A DNA stretch of 32,323 nt from an uncultured Oscillospiraceae bacterium (lineage in GTDB: Bacteria > Bacillota > Clostridia > Christensenellales > CAG-314): NCBI GenBank assembly GCA_964483825.1, contig CAZADD010000005.1, positions 1 to 32,323 on the forward strand, written 5' to 3'. The position numbers and the translations under genes were made by a program. Positions 2,022 through 17,966 of this stretch are shown one piece after another. Numbering within the stretch: the stretch's first letter is position 1; each line of letters begins with the position of its first letter. The notes beneath the pieces are model-generated. The model saw only the letters and a program-made list of their open reading frames with translations, had not been told where the DNA came from and made no database searches.

Positions 2022-2915
2022 TTAGTCTTGCAAAATTTTTAGATATTTATCCAATCTCGCATTGATATATTCCGCAAAGAGTTTTTCCATAGCGGACAAA
2101 TTGTGCTTTGCATGGTATTCGTCAAACGCATTGTAGTAAGCCAAGCGATCCGTGAACTTAATGTCAATGGGCGGAAATCCGGCTTTCATAAGTTCCAAAT
2201 TAACAAGCAATCGGCCCGTTCTTCCGTTACCGTCAATGAATGGATGAATACCTTCAAATTCAATGTGAAAACGGGCCAATTTTGTTACAACGTGTTCTTT
2301 GCTTTCGGCAAAGTCGCGCAAAAGCTGCTCTATCTTTTCTTGAATGAGATACGGCTCGGTCGGCTCGTGCTGTGCGCCCATGATGCGAACGGGAACTTTG
2401 CGGTATACGCCTCGATCGTCCTTCTTGTCCGCAAGAACAAGATAGTGAATTTCTTTGATTACACGCTCGCTGATGGGCACGTTGTTTACCACAAGCTCTC
2501 GAACATATTCAAACGCCTCTTTGTGGCCCACCGCTTCCATGTGATCTTTCAGTGGTTTGCGGTCGACGGTTAGCCCCCTGAGAACCAAATCGGTTTCACG
2601 CAAGGTCAGCGTGTTGCCCTCAATGGCGTTGGAATTGTAGGTGTATTCAACGGCAAATTCTTCGTTCAAGCGTTCCGCTTCCCCCTCGGTCAGCGGTCTG
2701 CGACTGTCAAGTTCCGCCTTTTTTTTGTCTATTTGTGCAAGAATGCTCTCTTGAGATTTGTACCTTCCGTCCGACGGTTTTTCCGCATCGGCAGGAATTT
2801 TCCACCCGCGCCCCTCTTGAAACGCTCCCGAAATTTTACCCTCGGCACAAAGCACGCGAACTCTCCTTTCGGAAACGCCCCACTTTTCCGCAGCTCTTTT
2901 AACAGTCATGAACAT
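2022..2915 (-). CDS. Fic/Doc family protein (AMPylator-type) with N-terminal HTH and intramolecular inhibitory helix motif
   Basis: 297 aa. Canonical Fic motif HPFIDGNGRTGR. Upstream SNAIEGN matches the (S/T)xxxE(G/N) inhibitory motif. N-terminal MTVKRAAEKWGVSERRVRVLCAEGKISGA resembles an excisionase/MerR-like HTH. Confidence 0.9.
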   Translation of the reverse strand: MFMTVKRAAEKWGVSERRVRVLCAEGKISGAFQEGRGWKIPADAEKPSDGRYKSQESILAQIDKKKAELDSRRPLTEGEAERLNEEFAVEYTYNSNAIEGNTLTLRETDLVLRGLTVDRKPLKDHMEAVGHKEAFEYVRELVVNNVPISERVIKEIHYLVLADKKDDRGVYRKVPVRIMGAQHEPTEPYLIQEKIEQLLRDFAESKEHVVTKLARFHIEFEGIHPFIDGNGRTGRLLVNLELMKAGFPPIDIKFTDRLAYYNAFDEYHAKHNLSAMEKLFAEYINARLDKYLKILQD

Positions 2916-2973
2916 GCTCGTTATTCCTCCCGTTCGTGTTTATTATACCACACTTTCGGAACAATATCAATAG

Positions 2974-3009
2974 TAGCGGAATAATATTTTGCAAATTAGC
3001 GGAATAATA
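2974..3009 (-). promoter_or_regulatory. two 13-bp direct repeats TAGCGGAATAATA (about 23 bp centre to centre) upstream of fic; candidate operator in promoter region
   Basis: Exact 13-mer repeated at ~2974-2986 and ~2997-3009, 60-95 bp upstream of the fic start codon (2915). The Fic protein carries its own HTH. Confidence 0.35.
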
Positions 3010-3185
3010 GCTCTTGTTGGAGTATCTTTCCGTCGGGTACGGATATAAAAAACCGTGCAACGTACAAGCCAAGAACGTTGCGCTTTTTGTGCGTGCAAAC
3101 GACATCTTTTTCATGCTTGAAGTACAAAGCAATAGTTTTACAAGTATCTTGCCGCTTGTTTTCCGCTAGACGAACAGTTTTTTTC

Positions 3186-3290
3186 TTTTTGCGGCAACGG
3201 CTTTCGGCACCGTTCAACTTGAACAAAAATTCACTACAACACAAAACGGAGCAGAAAAAACGGCTCCGTTTTTTTGAATGGTTGATGAAT
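3186..3290. repeat. 105-bp direct repeat, copy 2 (with terminator hairpin ~3245-3278)
   Basis: About 95% identical to 1566-1670; together they bracket the fic gene. Confidence 0.85.
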
Positions 3291-3421
3291 ACGCACCATG
3301 TTTTCGTGCTCTTTCCACAAAATTATTTCAACGATATTGACAACTACCCAAATTAAATGTATTATTATTTTGTAAACAAACATTAAAATCGGCGATACGG
3401 TCGATTGAAGGAGGTTTTTTC

Positions 3422-4006
3422 GTGTTTTGGGAAAATTTGTCGCTTCTTGCGAAAATTTTGTTTTGCACCGGCATTGGCTCCACCGCCATTTTGCTGATAC
3501 AGATAATTTTGATGATAATCGGCTTTGCCGGCGATGCTTTCGGCGACGTTGACGTAGACATCGATGCCGACGGCGACGTGGATTTGGACGGTGCCGGCGA
3601 CGGAATAGGTTTGTTCACCATAAAAGGCCTTGTTGCATTCTTTTCCATAGGCAGTTGGACGGGTTTTGCAATGGACGTTTCCGGTTGCAACGAAGTGCTT
3701 TCCGTTTGCATTGCCGTGCTTGTGGGGGCGGCCGCACTTGTGGGCGTAGGCTTTTTGTACAAAGCGTTGAACAAGTTGCAATCCAACGGCAATTTGAACA
3801 TGGCCAACGCCATCGGAAAAACCGCCGAAGTGTATCTCACCGTTCCTGCAAACAATTCCGGCACAGGCAAAGTAACGCTGGAAGTTCAGGAAAAGTTTGT
3901 GGAAGCAACGGCTCGCACCACCGCCGAAAACGCCATTCCAACGGGATCGATAGTTAAAGTTGTGGATACCGTTAACGGCGAACTGATAGTAGAATTAAGT
4001 AAATAA
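3422..4006 (+). CDS. NfeD-like membrane protein (YuaF/YqiJ type, C-terminal OB-fold), flotillin partner
   Basis: 194 aa. N-terminal TM helices, acidic DVDVDIDADGDVDLDGAGDG stretch, C-terminal beta-rich domain. GTG start with GGAGG RBS. Immediately upstream of the flotillin gene with a 15-bp gap. Confidence 0.8.
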   Translation: MFWENLSLLAKILFCTGIGSTAILLIQIILMIIGFAGDAFGDVDVDIDADGDVDLDGAGDGIGLFTIKGLVAFFSIGSWTGFAMDVSGCNEVLSVCIAVLVGAAALVGVGFLYKALNKLQSNGNLNMANAIGKTAEVYLTVPANNSGTGKVTLEVQEKFVEATARTTAENAIPTGSIVKVVDTVNGELIVELSK

Positions 4007-4021
4007 CAGGAGGTAACAACT

Positions 4022-5458
4022 ATGCTCAACATTTTTGCAACCATCACCAGCGGAGCGATAGCCGGCATTGTAGTGGCGGCCGTTCTCGTTTTAACGTCGA
4101 TATTTTTGATGTTCCTTTCTCGCTACAAAAAGTGCCCGTCGGATAAAATAATGGTTATCTACGGCAAAATCGGCAAAAACAGCGACGGTACGTCTCGCAG
4201 CGCAAAATGTATTCACGGCGGCGCCGCATTTATCGTGCCGGTTATTCAAGCGCACGCATTTTTGGATTTGACCCCCATTTCCATCAGCGTGGACCTTCGC
4301 AACGCCCTTTCCAAACAAAACATTCGTGTTGACGTTCCGTCCCGATTCACCGTTGGTATTTCCACCGAACCGGGCATCATGCAAAACGCCGCCGAACGCC
4401 TTTTGGGGCTTTCGTTGAACGAAATTCAAGAGTTGGCAAAAGATATAATTTTGGGCCAATTGCGTTTGGTTATTGCAACGATGGAAATTGAAGAAATCAA
4501 CAACGACAGAGACAAATTTTTGGAAGCCGTTTCTCGCAACGTGGAAACGGAATTGAAAAAGATTGGTTTGCGCCTTATCAACGTTAACGTAACGGATATC
4601 AGCGACGAAAGCGGCTACATCAGCGCACTTGGTAAAGAAGCGGCAGCAAAAGCTATCAACGCTGCAAAAATTTCCGTTGCCGAAGCGGACAAAGAAGGTT
4701 CTATCGGTGCCGCAAACGCATTGAGAGAGCAAAGAATAATGGTTTCGCAAGCGGAAGCGGAAGCCATTAAGGGCGAAAACGACGCAAAGGCGGAAATTGC
4801 AACTGCGCAAGCAACGTTGAGAGAAAAGGAAGCCGAAGCAACCAAAATTGCCACCGTTGCGGAAAAGACCAAGAGTGCGGAAGCGTTGGAAGAATCCTAC
4901 TCGGCGGAAAAACTTGCCGAACAAGCCCGTGCCGCCCGTGACCAAGCAACTTTGGAAGCCGACGTAATTGTCAAAACGGATATTGAAAAACGCCGCAGAG
5001 AAATAGATGCCGAAGCCGAAGCGGAACAAATTCGCCGCAGAGCACAAGGTGAAGCGGACGCAATCTACGCAAAACTGGAAGCACAAGCACGCGGCGTGAA
5101 AGCGTTGTTGGATAACCAAGCGCAAGGTTATGCGGAAATTGTTAAGGCTGCCGGCGGCGACGCAAACGCTGCAATGCGCTTGATGATAACGGACAAAATG
5201 GAAAGCCTTGTCAAAACGCAAGTTGAAGCAATCAAAAACATCAAAATTGACAAAATCACCGTGTGGGATTCCGGCAAGGGCGAAGACGGCAAAACATCCA
5301 CTGCAAACTTTTTATCCGGACTTTTGCAAAGCTTGCCCCCGATGACGGACCTTTTCGACATGGCCGGCTTGCAACTTCCCGAAGTTTTGAACGCGCAAAA
5401 GAAAGTTGAAGAACCCCCTAAAACAGAAGACAACACAGAAATCAAAACAGAAGAATAG
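4022..5458 (+). CDS. floT: flotillin-family SPFH domain protein (FloT/YuaG-like)
   Basis: 478 aa. N-terminal TM segment, SPFH core, long Ala/Glu-rich coiled-coil (EA repeats) typical of flotillins. GGAGG RBS. Operon with NfeD as in B. subtilis yuaF-floT. Confidence 0.88.
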   Translation: MLNIFATITSGAIAGIVVAAVLVLTSIFLMFLSRYKKCPSDKIMVIYGKIGKNSDGTSRSAKCIHGGAAFIVPVIQAHAFLDLTPISISVDLRNALSKQNIRVDVPSRFTVGISTEPGIMQNAAERLLGLSLNEIQELAKDIILGQLRLVIATMEIEEINNDRDKFLEAVSRNVETELKKIGLRLINVNVTDISDESGYISALGKEAAAKAINAAKISVAEADKEGSIGAANALREQRIMVSQAEAEAIKGENDAKAEIATAQATLREKEAEATKIATVAEKTKSAEALEESYSAEKLAEQARAARDQATLEADVIVKTDIEKRRREIDAEAEAEQIRRRAQGEADAIYAKLEAQARGVKALLDNQAQGYAEIVKAAGGDANAAMRLMITDKMESLVKTQVEAIKNIKIDKITVWDSGKGEDGKTSTANFLSGLLQSLPPMTDLFDMAGLQLPEVLNAQKKVEEPPKTEDNTEIKTEE

Positions 5459-13960: not shown

Positions 13961-14153
13961 TTGTGAGGATAAAACCGGTTTTCAACCAACCCGACAACCC
14001 AAGAAACTACACAAGTTTCTTATCCTGTCCCTTTTTCTTTTCACTCGTGCGGTTTGTTGCCCAAGTCGCCATTGACATCGGACGGCGACAATGATATACT
14101 GTTGTCAAACTCAAACACGGCACAATCTTTGGCGAAAACACACGGAGCAAACT

Positions 14154-15404
14154 ATGTCATCGTACAACGAACTAATAAAAAACTTTGAAAAGATACGGAC
14201 ATATATGCGTGATTTCTACCTTTTTGGGTTCAAAAGCCGTGACGACTATCAGGCAAAAAGCGCACGCTCCTACGACGACGAACGGCGAAGGCTGGAAAGC
14301 TGGCTGGGCGATCACATGAGTTTCGTGCGCACGGCGGAAGGCAAAAACGTTTTTATTTCCATCGACAGCCGTTCCATCAAGCACAATCCGCTTTACAACG
14401 CTTGGAAAGCCAAAAGTTTCACCGACGGCGACGTCACTTTGCACTTCGTTATTTTTGATATTTTGTGCAATTCGTCCGTAAAGCGCACCACTTCGGAACT
14501 GATGGACGAAATTGATGCCTACCTTGCCGATTTTCGCCAACCGATGCTTTTGGACGAATCCACCGTTCGCAAAAAACTGAAAGAATACTGCGAGGCCGGC
14601 ATTATCGTGGCGGAAAAAGTCGGGCGCAAAATTTACTATCGCCGGGCGGAGGACGACGAAACGCACCTGAACGACGTGTTGCACTTCTTTTCGGAAATTG
14701 CCCCTTGCGGCGTGATAGGTTCGTTTTTGTTGGATAAACAATCCGCCCACGACGACGCATTTTCCTTCAAACATCACTACATAACAGGTGCTTTGGATAG
14801 TGACGTTTTGGCAACGCTTTTTGTCGCCATGCGAGAACAGCGCATTGTTTCCGTAAGCAACAACAACCATCGCAAGGACGTTCCGCGGCGCAGTCGCATT
14901 GTGCCGCTAAGAGTGTTTGCAAGCGTGCAAAACGGAAGGCAACACCTTTTGGCATACGTACCGGAAGGAAACTGCTTCACATCCTACCGCATCGACTACC
15001 TTTCCAACATCAAGCTAGAAGAACAAACGCCCCGTTTTTGCGAACTTAGGCAGCAACTGGACGAAATTCAAACCAAAATGTGGGGCGTAAGCATCAAGCG
15101 CAACAGCCGTGGCGAAGACCGTTTGGAACATGTGGAATTCACCGTGAAAGTTGCCGAAAACGAGCAATACATCGTGCGGCGGCTGCAACGGGAAAAGCGT
15201 GTGGGAACGGTGGAAAAACTGGACGAAAACATCTACCGTTTTTCGGCGAACGTGTACGACAGCACAGAAATGATACCTTGGATACGCACCTTTATTTGCC
15301 GCATAACGCAACTTAACTTTTCCAACCGCAATGTTGAAAACCAATTCAAAAAGGACGTTGACGCAATGTGCCGCCTGTACGGCGTGAAAGGGGGCGAACA
15401 ATGA
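14154..15404 (+). CDS. WYL-domain transcriptional regulator (winged HTH + WYL-like + C-terminal extension), long N-terminal region
   Basis: wHTH-like segment TSELMDEIDAYLADFRQPMLLDESTVRKKLKEYCEAGIIVAEKVGRKIYY. WYL-like segment RIVPLRVFASVQNGRQHLLAYVPEGNCFTSYRIDYLSNI. Start placed at the internal ATG (MSSYNEL); a longer ORF from 14091 is possible. Confidence 0.7.
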   Translation: MSSYNELIKNFEKIRTYMRDFYLFGFKSRDDYQAKSARSYDDERRRLESWLGDHMSFVRTAEGKNVFISIDSRSIKHNPLYNAWKAKSFTDGDVTLHFVIFDILCNSSVKRTTSELMDEIDAYLADFRQPMLLDESTVRKKLKEYCEAGIIVAEKVGRKIYYRRAEDDETHLNDVLHFFSEIAPCGVIGSFLLDKQSAHDDAFSFKHHYITGALDSDVLATLFVAMREQRIVSVSNNNHRKDVPRRSRIVPLRVFASVQNGRQHLLAYVPEGNCFTSYRIDYLSNIKLEEQTPRFCELRQQLDEIQTKMWGVSIKRNSRGEDRLEHVEFTVKVAENEQYIVRRLQREKRVGTVEKLDENIYRFSANVYDSTEMIPWIRTFICRITQLNFSNRNVENQFKKDVDAMCRLYGVKGGEQ

Positions 15405-16312
15405 TTTTCAGTGAACTTTATTCCGCCTACTACAACACCGTTTCGGCAATTATTTCCGCCGTTTTGGACGGGGAAAACAACGAAAGAGAACTGCAAAAAA
15501 TAGTTGAAGAACATGCGTTTGGCGAAAGCGTACTCACCGTTTTGCCCAATTTGAAAAGCCAAAAATGGCAACTTTTGCGCACGGACGGCACAACGCCCAT
15601 CAAAAACAAACCGTCAATGCCGCTGACGACATTGCAAAAACAGTGGTTGAAAGCAATTTCGTTGGACCCGCGCATTCGGCTGTTTGACGAAACTTTCCCC
15701 AATTTGGAAGGTGTTGAGCCGCTGTTCACCCCGGACGACTTTCGCATTTACGATAAATACGGCGACGGCGACGATTTCGACAACCCTGAATACGTACGGC
15801 AATTTCGCGTTGTTTTGAACGCAATAAAACACGGCACTCAAATAAAGTTTGAAATGCCCAACCGCCGCGGCAACACCATGTTCGTGCGTTGCCGACCGTT
15901 AAGTTTGGAATATTCCCCAAAGGACGACAAATTCCGCGTCGTGATTGACGGCTGCCGTGCCGCAAGCGTAGTAAACCTTGCAAAAATCAGCCGTTGCGTT
16001 GCCTACGTGAGAGAAAAACCGCCCAACGGACGCTCGAAAAAGATTGTGCAAGACACCGTCACCGTTCAACTGACCAACTACCGAAACGCTTTAGAACGGT
16101 TCATGCTGCATTTTGCACACTTTGAAAAACAGGCGGAGCGGTTGGATAACAAACACTATCGAATAAAAATTCGCTACTTCCACGACGAAGAAGCGGACAT
16201 GGTGATACGAATTCTTTCCTTCGGGCCACTGGTAGAAGTGACCGAACCGTCTTCTTTCCGGAATTTGATAGTAGAAAAACTCAAAAAACAGCAAAACTGC
16301 GAACTCAAATGA
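15401..16312 (+). CDS. second WYL-like/WCX-like domain protein, translationally coupled (ATGA overlap) to the upstream WYL regulator
   Basis: Segments QIKFEMPNRRGNTMFVRCRPLSLEYSPKDDKFRVVIDGCRAASVVNLAKISRC and C-terminal HYRIKIRYFHDEEADMVIRILSFGPLVEVTEP resemble WYL plus the C-terminal extension. ATG at 15401 overlaps the TGA of the previous gene. Confidence 0.65.
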   Translation: MIFSELYSAYYNTVSAIISAVLDGENNERELQKIVEEHAFGESVLTVLPNLKSQKWQLLRTDGTTPIKNKPSMPLTTLQKQWLKAISLDPRIRLFDETFPNLEGVEPLFTPDDFRIYDKYGDGDDFDNPEYVRQFRVVLNAIKHGTQIKFEMPNRRGNTMFVRCRPLSLEYSPKDDKFRVVIDGCRAASVVNLAKISRCVAYVREKPPNGRSKKIVQDTVTVQLTNYRNALERFMLHFAHFEKQAERLDNKHYRIKIRYFHDEEADMVIRILSFGPLVEVTEPSSFRNLIVEKLKKQQNCELK

Positions 16313-16335
16313 GAGTTCGCAGCTTTTTTTCCGTG
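16296..16335 (+). terminator. rho-independent terminator overlapping the stop codon of the WYL pair
   Basis: 10-bp stem CTGCGAACTC / GAGTTCGCAG with the TGA stop in the loop, followed by T7. Confidence 0.75.
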
Positions 16336-16439
16336 AAAAACCAATAATTTGGCGGTAAAATACACTTGCAAGGTTGATTCACGCAAGTGCTTGACACAAA
16401 ACGTAACTGCGGTGCACCAGGATGTTCCAAAGTGTATGC

Positions 16440-16510
16440 CGAAAGAAACTTTGCGCGGTCGCAGGGCCCGAAAGCCCTCTCAACGCGGGTTCGAATCCCG
16501 CCTTAGCCAG
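16440..16510 (+). ncRNA. candidate structured RNA with tRNA-like T-arm (possible Y-RNA/YrlA-like or tRNA-derived att remnant)
   Basis: GCGGGTTCGAATCCCGC is a perfect tRNA T-stem-loop, preceded by hairpin AGGGCCCGAAAGCCCT and followed by CTTAGCCA plus a D-loop-like AGTGGATTGGTAG. No complementary 5' acceptor strand was found, so it is not a canonical tRNA. It lies in a 500-bp noncoding gap upstream of the SPFH-rtcB genes. Confidence 0.3.
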
Positions 16511-16808
16511 TGGATTGGTAGTGTTCAAAAGAACACAAAGGAATCGCACGCAACTGCGTGCACAAACAGTTTTTTTCACGACTATTCCAACGCCGTTCCG
16601 CCAATGTGCAACCTTTGAAAACTTGTTTTCCCCAAAGTTGCAAGGCAATGCGAACGCACGCTTTGCCCGAAAACGGATACCGCACGCTTCCCACCGTTGC
16701 CAAACAACACGTTCCGCAACGGGCAGAACGCGCTCAAGTTTTTGGCCGCTACGTTTTCATGAACGGTTGAGGAACCGACATTACTACCTTCAAGGAGGAT
16801 TACATATT

Positions 16809-17906
16809 ATGACAACGACAATCATCAATCAAAACCAAAAAGGATTTCTTTTCAAAAACGGAAAGTACGTTAAGTTGCTTGATGCCGGCAAGTACCGCTT
16901 GTTTGGCAAAGAAGTGGAAATTTCCGACTTCGATCAACCCATTTTTCCGCGCAAATGTGCGTTGGATACCTTGCTTCAAGACCAAAACGTGGCAAGCCAA
17001 GTAACCGTTGTGGAAGTGGCGGACGAACAACTTGCGTTGCACTACGTCAACGGCAACTTCGCCTCCGCTTTGCGCCAAGGCAAATATGCGTTTTGGAACG
17101 TTGTGGATAAGCACGAATTCAAAATTGTGGATATTTCCGATCCGACGGTGGACGAATCTATTTCGCCCTACGTGTTCACAAGAATTCCGCAAATCTACTA
17201 CACCAAGGCGGAAGTTGCAGAATACCAAAAGGGACTTTTGTACTTCAATCGCAAGTTTGTAAAGGTTTTGGAGCCCGGCACCTACTATTTTTGGAAAACA
17301 GCCGTGAAAGTGGACGTAGAATACGTTGACACACGCCTCACCCAAATGGACATTGCCGGCCAAGAAATTTTGACGGCGGATAAAGTTTCGTTGCGCATCA
17401 ACTTCACTTGCAACTACCGCATCACCGACTTTGTGAAAATAACCACGGAAGTGGACGACTTTGCCGAACACTTGCACGTTGCAGCACAACTGGCGTTGCG
17501 TGAATACGTGGGCAAGTACAAGCTGGACGAAATTTTGGAAAACAAGGACGAAATTTCCCAATTCGTGTTTGAAAAATTGAAAGAATGCGAAAAGGACTTG
17601 TTTGTGGAAATAACGTCCGCCGGCGTGAAAGATGTTATTTTGCCGGGCGAAATCCGCGAAATAATGAACACCGTTCTGATTGCGGAAAAACGCGCGCAAG
17701 CCAACGTCATCACTCGCCGTGAAGAGGTTGCTTCCACTCGTTCTTTGTTGAACACCGCAAAACTTATGGACGAAAACCAAACGTTGTACAAACTGAAAGA
17801 ATTGGAATACGTGGAACGCATTTGCGAAAACGTGGGCAACATTTCCTTGAACGGAAACGGGGATATTCTTTCTCAACTGACAAAAATACTGGGTGGCAAA
17901 GCCTAA
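16809..17906 (+). CDS. cytoplasmic SPFH/band-7 (stomatin/prohibitin-like) domain protein with triplicated N-terminal beta-hairpin motif
   Basis: 366 aa. AAGGAGGA RBS. SPFH core (ILTADKVSLRINFTCNYRI...ILPGEIREIMNTVLIAEKRAQ). No TM segment. Three N-terminal repeats of a GxLxxNGKyVKvLepGkYxFW-type motif. Start placed at the internal ATG; the upstream ORF extension lacks an RBS. Confidence 0.8.
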   Translation: MTTTIINQNQKGFLFKNGKYVKLLDAGKYRLFGKEVEISDFDQPIFPRKCALDTLLQDQNVASQVTVVEVADEQLALHYVNGNFASALRQGKYAFWNVVDKHEFKIVDISDPTVDESISPYVFTRIPQIYYTKAEVAEYQKGLLYFNRKFVKVLEPGTYYFWKTAVKVDVEYVDTRLTQMDIAGQEILTADKVSLRINFTCNYRITDFVKITTEVDDFAEHLHVAAQLALREYVGKYKLDEILENKDEISQFVFEKLKECEKDLFVEITSAGVKDVILPGEIREIMNTVLIAEKRAQANVITRREEVASTRSLLNTAKLMDENQTLYKLKELEYVERICENVGNISLNGNGDILSQLTKILGGKA

Positions 17907-17966
17907 CCTCGCGTGCGGCAAGCGTTGTCACCCAAAACAAATCGAGCCGCACGTAAAGGAGTATTT

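Follow-up and report, generated by a model that had tools for sequence, protein, structure and literature searches.

A conserved tRNA-mimic RNA module at the 5′ end of SPFH-led RNA-repair operons in gut Clostridia

RtcB repair operons are widespread, and their substrates and targeting are largely open. Small RNAs that imitate tRNA have been described in this setting. YrlA is defined by the sequence GNCGAAN0-1G close to the 5′ end, T and D stem-loops that are almost invariant, an AS stem-loop of variable sequence placed between these two and a less conserved V element upstream of T; its genes lie at most 4 kb from rsr on the same strand, and in rsr-yrlBA-rtcBA operons Y RNAs are cut from operon precursors (Chen et al. 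2014). Another class is introduced in a paragraph by Wang et al. (bioRxiv 10.1101/312249), according to which Burroughs & Aravind (2016) predicted a Band-7-associated tRNA-like RNA (b7a-tRNA) next to Band-7 and RtcB; the paragraph describes this RNA as strongly resembling tRNA and without experimental validation, and adds that YrlA is occasionally found by Band-7. Our searches returned no experimental study of b7a-tRNA and no matching Rfam model.

Here we analyse a 32,323-nt stretch of DNA (contig CAZADD010000005.1 of assembly GCA_964483825.1, from an uncultured Oscillospiraceae bacterium), referred to below as the window, in which an RNA with tRNA-like features precedes the genes of an SPFH/Band-7 protein and of RtcB. 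The initial annotation of this region had pointed to a GC hairpin, an exact tRNA T arm, a D-arm-like segment, a later hairpin and a T run, all of which are present where it placed them. They belong to a conserved, strand-specific and covarying tRNA-mimic module, itself part of a larger structured RNA that stands at the 5′ end of repair operons led by SPFH. In total, about 110 copies of the module were identified in gut Clostridia, at more than 100 loci and just upstream of SPFH operons.

Related loci were collected through an alignment of SPFH homologs. About 556 genome loci were found in this search, and 80 of them were examined, all from Clostridia and mostly from Oscillospiraceae-type metagenome-assembled genomes, with SPFH proteins 67–80% identical. 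A simple pattern search placed GGTTCGAATCC-like T loops ~320 nt before the SPFH ATG in 65 of the 80 loci. Behind the T arm most loci have a closed hairpin of 7 bp (AS, an acceptor-like hairpin named after the YrlA nomenclature), the D-arm-like hairpin GCCAG-UGGN-UUGG, a hairpin of the GUCC-UUCG-GGAC type (H6), a further hairpin (H7) and a U-rich strand, in this order. The helices of the T arm, AS, the D arm and H6 were tested on an alignment of 54 sequences from which the window was left out. Taken together, 92.6% of their alignment cells are paired, and 15 of 20 pairs show changes on both sides. None of 500 shuffles reached the observed values, and sliding the partners by 1–3 columns reduced the paired fraction to 26–46%. 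AS covaries at all seven of its pairs, and the T loop and the GG of the D loop are invariant or nearly so. G-U pairs are frequent (for example, 48 of 53 sequences at the last D-stem pair); since they would become A-C mismatches on the opposite strand, the strand of the RNA is fixed.

A covariance model, R1, was built from the 54 other loci, again with the window excluded (its E-values are approximate, as calibration was shortened). R1 matches on the SPFH strand and upstream of SPFH in 76 of the 80 loci, mostly with 47–89 bits. In the window it aligns to positions 16478–16536 with 53.4 bits (E ~1e-14), 16 model positions that form the inner part of AS being deleted; the next best match reaches 12 bits, and nothing elsewhere in the window exceeds this value. 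Genuine tRNAs in the same loci score only 11–20 bits. The copy in the cultured Subdoligranulum variabile (locus L138) reaches 54 bits with R1. As checks, the initial annotation had proposed covariance-model searches and a comparison of orthologous loci: the motif is indeed present at the latter, but no Rfam model matches. At gathering thresholds Rfam gave no match in the window and 15 related loci, and no Rfam family matches either domain of the RNA described below; at E ≤ 10, in the window gap and in the leader of locus L005, only the 17-nt T arm was picked up, through tmRNA (14 bits) and a plastid UTR motif.

The first domain of the RNA, which holds the module, consists of the following elements in the window.

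16411–16440, + strand: hairpin P1, GGTGCAC..GGA-UGU-UCC..GUGUAUGCC; RNAalifold pairs columns 77–83 with 98–106, with compensatory changes, and the window fold agrees.
16441–16450, + strand: purine-rich 5′ strand of the closing helix, GAAAGAAACU, paired with 16568–16577 in the minimum-energy and centroid folds.
16463–16478, + strand: V hairpin (variable or anticodon-like arm), the GC hairpin AGGGCCCGAAAGCCCT, AGGGC-CCGAAA-GCCCU, from the sequence and the window fold.
16485–16501, + strand: T arm GCGGGTTCGAATCCCGC, GCGGG-UUCGAAU-CCCGC, a 5-bp stem with a UUCGAAU loop; R1 helix 1, 100% paired, with two covarying pairs.
16502–16506, + strand: junction CUUAG (CTTAG) at the site of the missing AS hairpin, where the 16 R1 positions are deleted.
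16507–16518, + strand: D-arm-like hairpin CCAG-UGGA-UUGG, CCAGTGGATTGG; R1 helix 3, 97% paired.
16521–16536, + strand: hairpin H6, GUGUUC-AAAA-GAACAC; R1 helix 4, with compensatory changes at 4 of 4 pairs and agreement with the window fold.
16546–16561, + strand: hairpin H7, GCACGCA-AC-UGCGUGC, from the window fold and RNAalifold columns 258–262 with 280–284.
16568–16577, + strand: U-rich 3′ strand of the closing helix, AGUUUUUUUC, from the folds; it takes in the seven T at 16570–16576.

The segment 16441–16577 is predicted to form a multi-branched structure of −50 kcal/mol (z-score −4.2; none of 200 shuffles was as stable), in which the minimum-energy and centroid folds agree and six hairpins sit inside the 10-bp closing helix GAAAGAAACU/AGUUUUUUUC. 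In 47 of 80 copies the minimum-energy fold joins the purine-rich strand to the U-rich one. The sequences of these two strands are lineage-specific and yet complementary (GAAAGAAACU/AGUUUUUUUC in the window, AAAAACCUU/AAGGUUUUU in L035 and GCCGC/GCGGC in L013), which supports the closing helix. The T-arm 17-mer occurs once in the window, even when two mismatches are allowed (chance expectation 0.01), and GUGUAUGCC of P1 is invariant in the family. The D loop is 4 nt long; its first G is invariant and the second is kept in at least 90% of copies. The T arm and the D-arm-like hairpin appear able to form a tRNA ‘elbow’. The V loop varies from 3 to 11 nt; it measures 6 nt in the window and 7 nt in 30 of 77 distinct copies, where it is anticodon-loop-like (CUGUCAA, CUGUAAA).

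In place of AS the window copy reads cgccTTAgccag, and the hairpin is absent. An independent assembly from another sample, L140, whose SPFH protein is 98% identical, contains the same AS-less module and is 100% identical through domain 1. Its presence in L140 shows that the deletion is genuine and did not arise in assembly; the window copy is a naturally occurring variant without the closed acceptor-like hairpin. For this copy the initial annotation was correct in finding no matching 5′ acceptor strand and no functional tRNA (ARAGORN predicts 0 tRNAs in the window), while the CTTAGCCA following the T arm turned out to be the junction and the 5′ strand of the D stem rather than a CCA end.

Many copies elsewhere in the family carry additional T-loop elements. 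In ‘type B’ copies (L016, L024, L025, L027, L029, L040, L043, L062) a second T-loop-like hairpin, GGGG-UUCAACU-CCCC, lies ~40 nt upstream of the main T arm and is itself preceded by a hairpin with CUGAUGAG, giving two T-loop modules per RNA.

Another pairing of the same region was considered. The invariant GUGUAUG of P1 (16432–16438 in the window) can form a 7-bp helix, G-U pairs included, with the 7 nt that follow the T stem. This helix would be a canonical acceptor stem, mutually exclusive with the P1 and AS hairpins, and makes a cloverleaf of canonical order possible in most copies, though not in the window: pairing is perfect (7/7) in 59 of 81 distinct copies and reaches only 4/7 in the window copy. 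Among 60 related loci, ARAGORN reported a ‘tRNA-Asp/His’ at the element in only four, in each case through the GUGUAUG pairing. As a conserved fold this pairing was rejected: at transversions in the AS stem it drops to 2–4 of 7 pairs, while the AS hairpin stays compensated. The permuted fold, in which the T arm, the closed acceptor hairpin and the D arm follow one another, is for this reason taken as the conserved one. The canonical cloverleaf could be a by-product, a lineage-restricted alternative state or a conformational switch, and it may explain the published description of an RNA ‘strongly resembling an authentic tRNA’.

We then consider how far the RNA extends. The gap between the upstream WYL-domain gene (WYL2) and SPFH is 496 nt long in the window and contains, outside the elements listed above, the following features.

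16333–16361, + strand: promoter-like site of the sigma-70 type, GTGAAA-17-TAAAAT, from a promoter scan, just 3′ of the WYL2 terminator.
16364–16390, + strand: 5′-proximal inverted repeat or hairpin, CACTTGC-N13-GCAAGTG, read from the sequence, at the putative transcription start.
16590–16769, + strand: domain 2, a rod of ~180 nt from which a side hairpin branches and whose internal loop GGAUACC is invariant, supported by covariation and located directly 3′ of the tRNA-like domain.
16792–16798, + strand: Shine-Dalgarno sequence AAGGAGG of the SPFH gene, read from the sequence and conserved in the alignment.

The site at 16333–16361 is the sole promoter-like site on the + strand of the gap, and the situation is the same in L005; its −10 block, (T)GGTAAAAT, is conserved in the alignment. 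The RNA would accordingly start near 16365. No promoter was found between the tRNA-like module and SPFH in the window and L005, and in the same two loci the scan called no terminator there, so that the RNA is probably transcribed as part of the operon RNA from this single upstream promoter. In homologs, a change in one arm of the inverted repeat at 16364–16390 is matched in the other (one example is GCTTG/CAAGC against GCATG/CATGC). The repeat may serve as a hairpin at the 5′ end of the RNA or, in the DNA, as an operator for the WYL regulators.

Domain 2 contains 54 pairs, of which 33 show compensatory changes; 93% of it is paired, a fraction somewhat inflated because the structure was derived from the same alignment, compared to 39–47% in slid controls. 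In most loci GGATACCG is found in it ~134 nt before the ATG. Across SPFH loci with only 67–80% protein identity, the ~460 nt of the gap between the −10 box and the Shine-Dalgarno sequence are conserved. Domain 1 (~16365–16580, ~215 nt) and domain 2 (~16590–16769) thus make up a ~445-nt conserved structured RNA between the promoter and the SPFH start codon.

This extent bears on the ~150-nt terminated transcript that had been suggested initially. The hairpin and the T run exist, but the promoter lies ~100 nt further upstream and no terminator is called; nor does the transcript appear to end at the T run, as conserved structure continues for ~190 nt beyond the module. The T run, 8 nt from H7, pairs with GAAAGAAACU in the minimum-energy fold and closes the domain. 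Reading the hairpin and T run as a terminator was rejected: it remained uncalled in both the window and L005, and the U run lacks conservation among type-B copies.

Metagenome contigs were scanned for GGTTCGAATCC-N18-34-GCCAGNGGNTTGG, a pattern that makes no use of genomic context. This gave 56 matches, 36 of which reach at least 47 bits with R1 and represent true copies. SPFH follows downstream on the same strand in 29 of the 36. Six of the other seven end before the position of SPFH, and five of these six show the WYL pair upstream. Since the metagenome copies with an informative flank carry SPFH or the WYL pair, the element is specific to SPFH cassettes. The remaining copy, L118, has neither SPFH nor the WYL pair and is possibly an assembly chimera. 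The other 20 pattern matches score 20–31 bits with R1 or fall below its cut-off; most of them are ordinary tRNAs with a chance match behind them, and a few lack an upstream tRNA. Scanning viral contigs with the same pattern gave 0 matches.

L118 also has an unusual structure: at ~344–400 (− strand) the 5′ two-thirds of a tRNA with a long variable arm are apparently fused, at the shared T arm, to AS, the D arm and H6, a fusion possibly produced as an assembly chimera by the identical T-arm sequence.

Related loci share the gene order WYL1-WYL2-RNA-SPFH-(RtcB). About ten genome loci that extend well past SPFH have no RtcB after it, and four shorter contigs stop before the RtcB position. A HIRAN-domain protein occupies the place of RtcB in L030 (5237–6112), and in L072 unrelated genes lie downstream of SPFH. 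Because some cassettes without RtcB keep the RNA, it tracks SPFH and the WYL pair and not the ligase. In a dozen or more loci an ORF of ~205 aa that belongs to no Pfam family lies between the RNA and SPFH (L122 at 2902–3531, L012, L037, L044, L052–L054, L057, L061, L068, L080, L085, L087, L133), and the RNA is still the 5′-most element of the operon.

The genes and gene-end signals of the cassette in the window are as follows.

14091–15404, + strand: WYL-domain protein 1, 437 aa (Pfam WYL), the first gene of the conserved cassette, with a homolog upstream in most related loci.
15368–16312, + strand: WYL/WCX-domain protein 2 (WYL2), 314 aa (Pfam WCX, E 1.4e-4, 22.6 bits, slightly below the curated cut-off of 23.9 bits).
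16297–16330, + strand: intrinsic terminator of WYL2, a 10-bp hairpin and T run, from the terminator scan and also present in homologs.
16809–17906, + strand: SPFH/Band-7 (slipin-type) protein, 365 aa (Pfam Band_7), with matches to stomatin and HflK structures.
17913–19175, + strand: RtcB RNA ligase (Pfam RtcB and NCBIfam).

A WYL2 homolog lies directly 5′ of the RNA in most related loci. The translated SPFH protein shows no visible hydrophobic membrane segment, and it contains three N-terminal repeats of the strand motif with which SPFH domains begin. Its AlphaFold model, obtained from a shallow alignment, is confident for the N-terminal beta-rich ~170 residues only (mean pLDDT 58); the matches of a Foldseek search with this model were confined to cage proteins (stomatin, HflK/C, prohibitin and erlin), had poor TM-scores and thus told nothing beyond family membership. 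No record with exactly this protein sequence was found on look-up, and a phage collection searched with it gave no match. The window also encodes dnaA, yidC and jag; among the window ORFs scanned, neither a TROVE/Ro60 protein nor an integrase was seen.

Two further coding regions resemble parts of the cassette. An ORF at 21037–21468 (+), ~1.9 kb downstream of the intact rtcB, corresponds to only the C-terminal ~70 residues of an RtcB-like protein and appears to be what is left of a second ligase gene. A further SPFH/Band-7 protein of 478 aa, unrelated to that of the cassette, is encoded at 4022–5458 (+), 11 kb upstream, and no such RNA adjoins it.

As to function, we lean, somewhat beyond even chances and by analogy with YrlA, towards the RNA, processed or not, being the RNA partner of a cytoplasmic SPFH oligomer and RtcB. 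The two WYL-domain regulators encoded upstream would control its synthesis as the 5′ portion of the operon transcript; either excised or still attached, the RNA would act as a partner of the SPFH oligomer and of RtcB. The T/D elbow may be a tRNA-shaped handle that gathers tRNA-recognising repair factors, or a decoy for tRNA-targeting nucleases. Such a partnership would parallel that of YrlA serving Ro60 in rsr-yrlBA-rtcBA operons. The persistence of the RNA with SPFH where RtcB is replaced or absent speaks for SPFH as the partner, as does the candidate relative in E. coli described below, whose 35%-identical slipin is paired with a nucleotidyltransferase.

Several observations weigh against this partner role or against the assignment to b7a-tRNA discussed below. 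A few lineages have lost all or part of the tRNA-like core, which is hence not indispensable: L050 lacks the T arm, AS and the D arm, and L042 and L059 keep the T arm only, while all three retain the promoter, P1, H7 and domain 2. The window copy itself has no AS hairpin. The RNA is always found at the operon 5′ end, on the same strand and with no promoter in between, an arrangement that fits a cis-acting leader equally well. The link to b7a-tRNA draws on a single-paragraph description in a citing paper, and that description is of an authentic-tRNA-like RNA, whereas the covariation-backed fold found here is permuted.

The main rival is a cis-acting role, less probable than a partner role. The ~445-nt 5′ UTR (untranslated region) would then control SPFH-rtcB expression, with the tRNA-like module as the sensor: the module might be bound or cut by tRNA-damage factors, or bound by RtcB, SPFH or the WYL proteins, with changes in read-through or mRNA stability as the outcome. 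Such a leader would account for the constant position directly 5′ of the operon, on its strand, behind one promoter and with no second promoter before SPFH, and for the RNA keeping its place at the operon 5′ end in loci with the extra ORF. In many type-A copies two strands that contain GAACG are alternative partners for the U-rich strand behind H7, in the manner of a terminator/antiterminator choice, and the perfect GUGUAUG pairing in 59 of 81 copies offers a second, exclusive fold. However, the scan called no canonical terminator 3′ of the module, type-B copies do not conserve the U run, and the alternative pairing of the acceptor is the one that breaks at AS-stem transversions where the AS hairpin is still compensated. 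We found no convincing conserved pairing that sequesters the Shine-Dalgarno sequence, the ORF that in some loci separates domain 2 from SPFH speaks against the ribosome-binding site of SPFH being controlled, and no Rfam riboswitch or T-box model matches.

A more speculative possibility, to which we give little weight, is that the ~445-nt RNA might be a self-reporting sentinel of RNA damage. Nucleases that target tRNA would cut the look-alike; the cut, or its ends sensed by the WYL pair, would switch SPFH-RtcB on, and RtcB would reseal the RNA and thereby reset the system, with the GGAUACC loop of domain 2 docking SPFH or the elbow.

The comparison with YrlA is instructive at this point, since the initial annotation had proposed a Y-RNA-like or YrlA-like tRNA mimic by rtcB. 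What stands of this proposal is the order of elements and the RNA-repair context. As in YrlA (PDB 6CU1), V, T, a closed AS and D follow one another in the family inside a stem of distant strands, T and D have nearly invariant stem-loops, and both RNAs are found within or next to RtcB repair operons, YrlA being co-transcribed with them and the present RNA presumably so. By the family definition given above, the element is nevertheless not a YrlA. The Ro-binding sequence GNCGAAN0-1G fits GCCGAAAG at 16438–16445 of the window but only 11 of 90 distinct copies in the family, and the consensus reads GCCAGAAG. AS, which occurs and covaries across the family, has been deleted from the window copy and from L140, a close relative; the D loop has only 4 nt, and P1, H6, H7 and the second large domain are extra. 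YrlA is found no more than 4 kb from rsr; the present RNA instead goes with SPFH, at more than 100 loci, with no Ro60/Rsr gene nearby among the window ORFs scanned and with the WYL pair, SPFH and RtcB as flanks. It is therefore very unlikely that this is a true Y RNA of the YrlA type, bound to a Ro60 (Rsr) whose gene lies in another part of the genome.

We consider equally improbable a circularly permuted tRNA precursor that serves as an RtcB substrate, being excised at the closing helix and joined end to end by RtcB, after which opening of the acceptor loop would give a tRNA, or else a circular RNA. In Cyanidioschyzon merolae, circularly permuted tRNA genes have the 3′ half (T arm and acceptor 3′ strand) upstream of the 5′ half (acceptor 5′ strand and D arm), joined by a short loop, and mature into working tRNAs through a circular intermediate. 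Likewise, a tRNA whose permutation point lies between its D and anticodon arms would show the arm order of our family, the AS stem has 7 bp as in tRNA, and the closing helix would juxtapose the ends of the domain next to an RNA ligase gene; RNase P is moreover known to open the YrlA of M. smegmatis. Unlike the C. merolae genes, the element has no conserved anticodon-like loop, the V loop of 3–11 nt not being a conserved 7-nt one, and nothing in it indicates maturation. Neither a CCA nor a discriminator pattern is seen in AS loops, AS itself is missing from the window and from some other lineages, and several loci lack RtcB. A working tRNA is very unlikely as well.

Least probable of all, to the point of being negligible, is a functionless tRNA-gene remnant, be it a pseudogene or the integration-site 3′ fragment that had been suggested initially: for all its perfect T arm and, in the window, its missing acceptor stem, the element keeps its position, strand and flanking hairpins, with compensatory changes, in 76 of 80 genomes and 36 metagenome contigs (>100 loci), it lies in the dnaA-yidC-jag chromosomal region with no integrase among the window ORFs scanned, its neighbouring sequence is a conserved structured RNA and not an island border, and the 67–80% protein identity among loci argues against recent horizontal copies of one island.

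A possible relative was noticed outside the Clostridia. A slipin family protein of E. coli is a full-length homolog of the SPFH protein (35% identical); of 5426 complete E. coli genomes, 1628 (~30%) carry its gene, which lies between yjbD and lysC. Adjoining it are a zeta-toxin gene and the gene of a nucleotidyltransferase of the RlaP family (‘RNA repair pathway’), with no RtcB. The unannotated gap upstream of it (L137, 3696–3846 of CP061233.1; L139, NZ_CP019267.1) contains a T arm, UGGG-UUCGAUU-CCCA, and an adjacent closed 7-bp hairpin; A-rich and U-rich strands close the region in the predicted fold, and R1 gives 16.6 bits with filters off. These features are suggestive of a distant relative, an RNA of the same kind. 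If it is related, the E. coli slipin element makes the question testable in a tractable organism.

Among other known RNAs, canonical tRNA and the tRNA-like domain of tmRNA share with the element an exact T arm, which is also its only Rfam similarity (14 bits). An acceptor stem formed from two ends, a conserved anticodon loop and CCA are all missing, and ARAGORN and the Rfam tRNA and tmRNA models are negative. T-box leaders are comparable as long structured leaders of Bacillota that are concerned with tRNA shape and contain conserved internal loops; they bind tRNA, however, whereas the present RNA resembles it, and no Rfam T-box match (E up to 10) and no terminator/antiterminator of the T-box type was found.

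The closest described class is b7a-tRNA, to which the window element probably belongs, as we hold with good confidence for a comparison made against a one-paragraph description only. Like b7a-tRNA, it adjoins a Band-7/SPFH gene in an RtcB-type neighbourhood (in the window, in 76 of 80 genome loci and in 29 of 36 metagenome copies), and its association follows SPFH and not the ligase. The fold is likewise tRNA-like: the T arm, the D-arm-like hairpin with GG and the 7-bp acceptor-like helix of the family all covary. It differs in being part of a ~445-nt two-domain leader, and in the window copy by the lack of the acceptor-like hairpin. On this assignment the class itself goes back to the prediction of 2016, and the window copy adds to it a variant with a natural deletion. 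What is added here is a calibrated covariance model, ~110 copies, a covariation-backed permuted-tRNA fold, deletion variants and a second covarying domain of ~180 nt. In Proteobacteria the partner RNAs YrlA and YrlB bind Ro60; here, a membrane-less SPFH/Band-7 scaffold is equally tightly coupled to a tRNA mimic. This coupling supports the view that tRNA look-alikes are a general part of RNA-repair machines.

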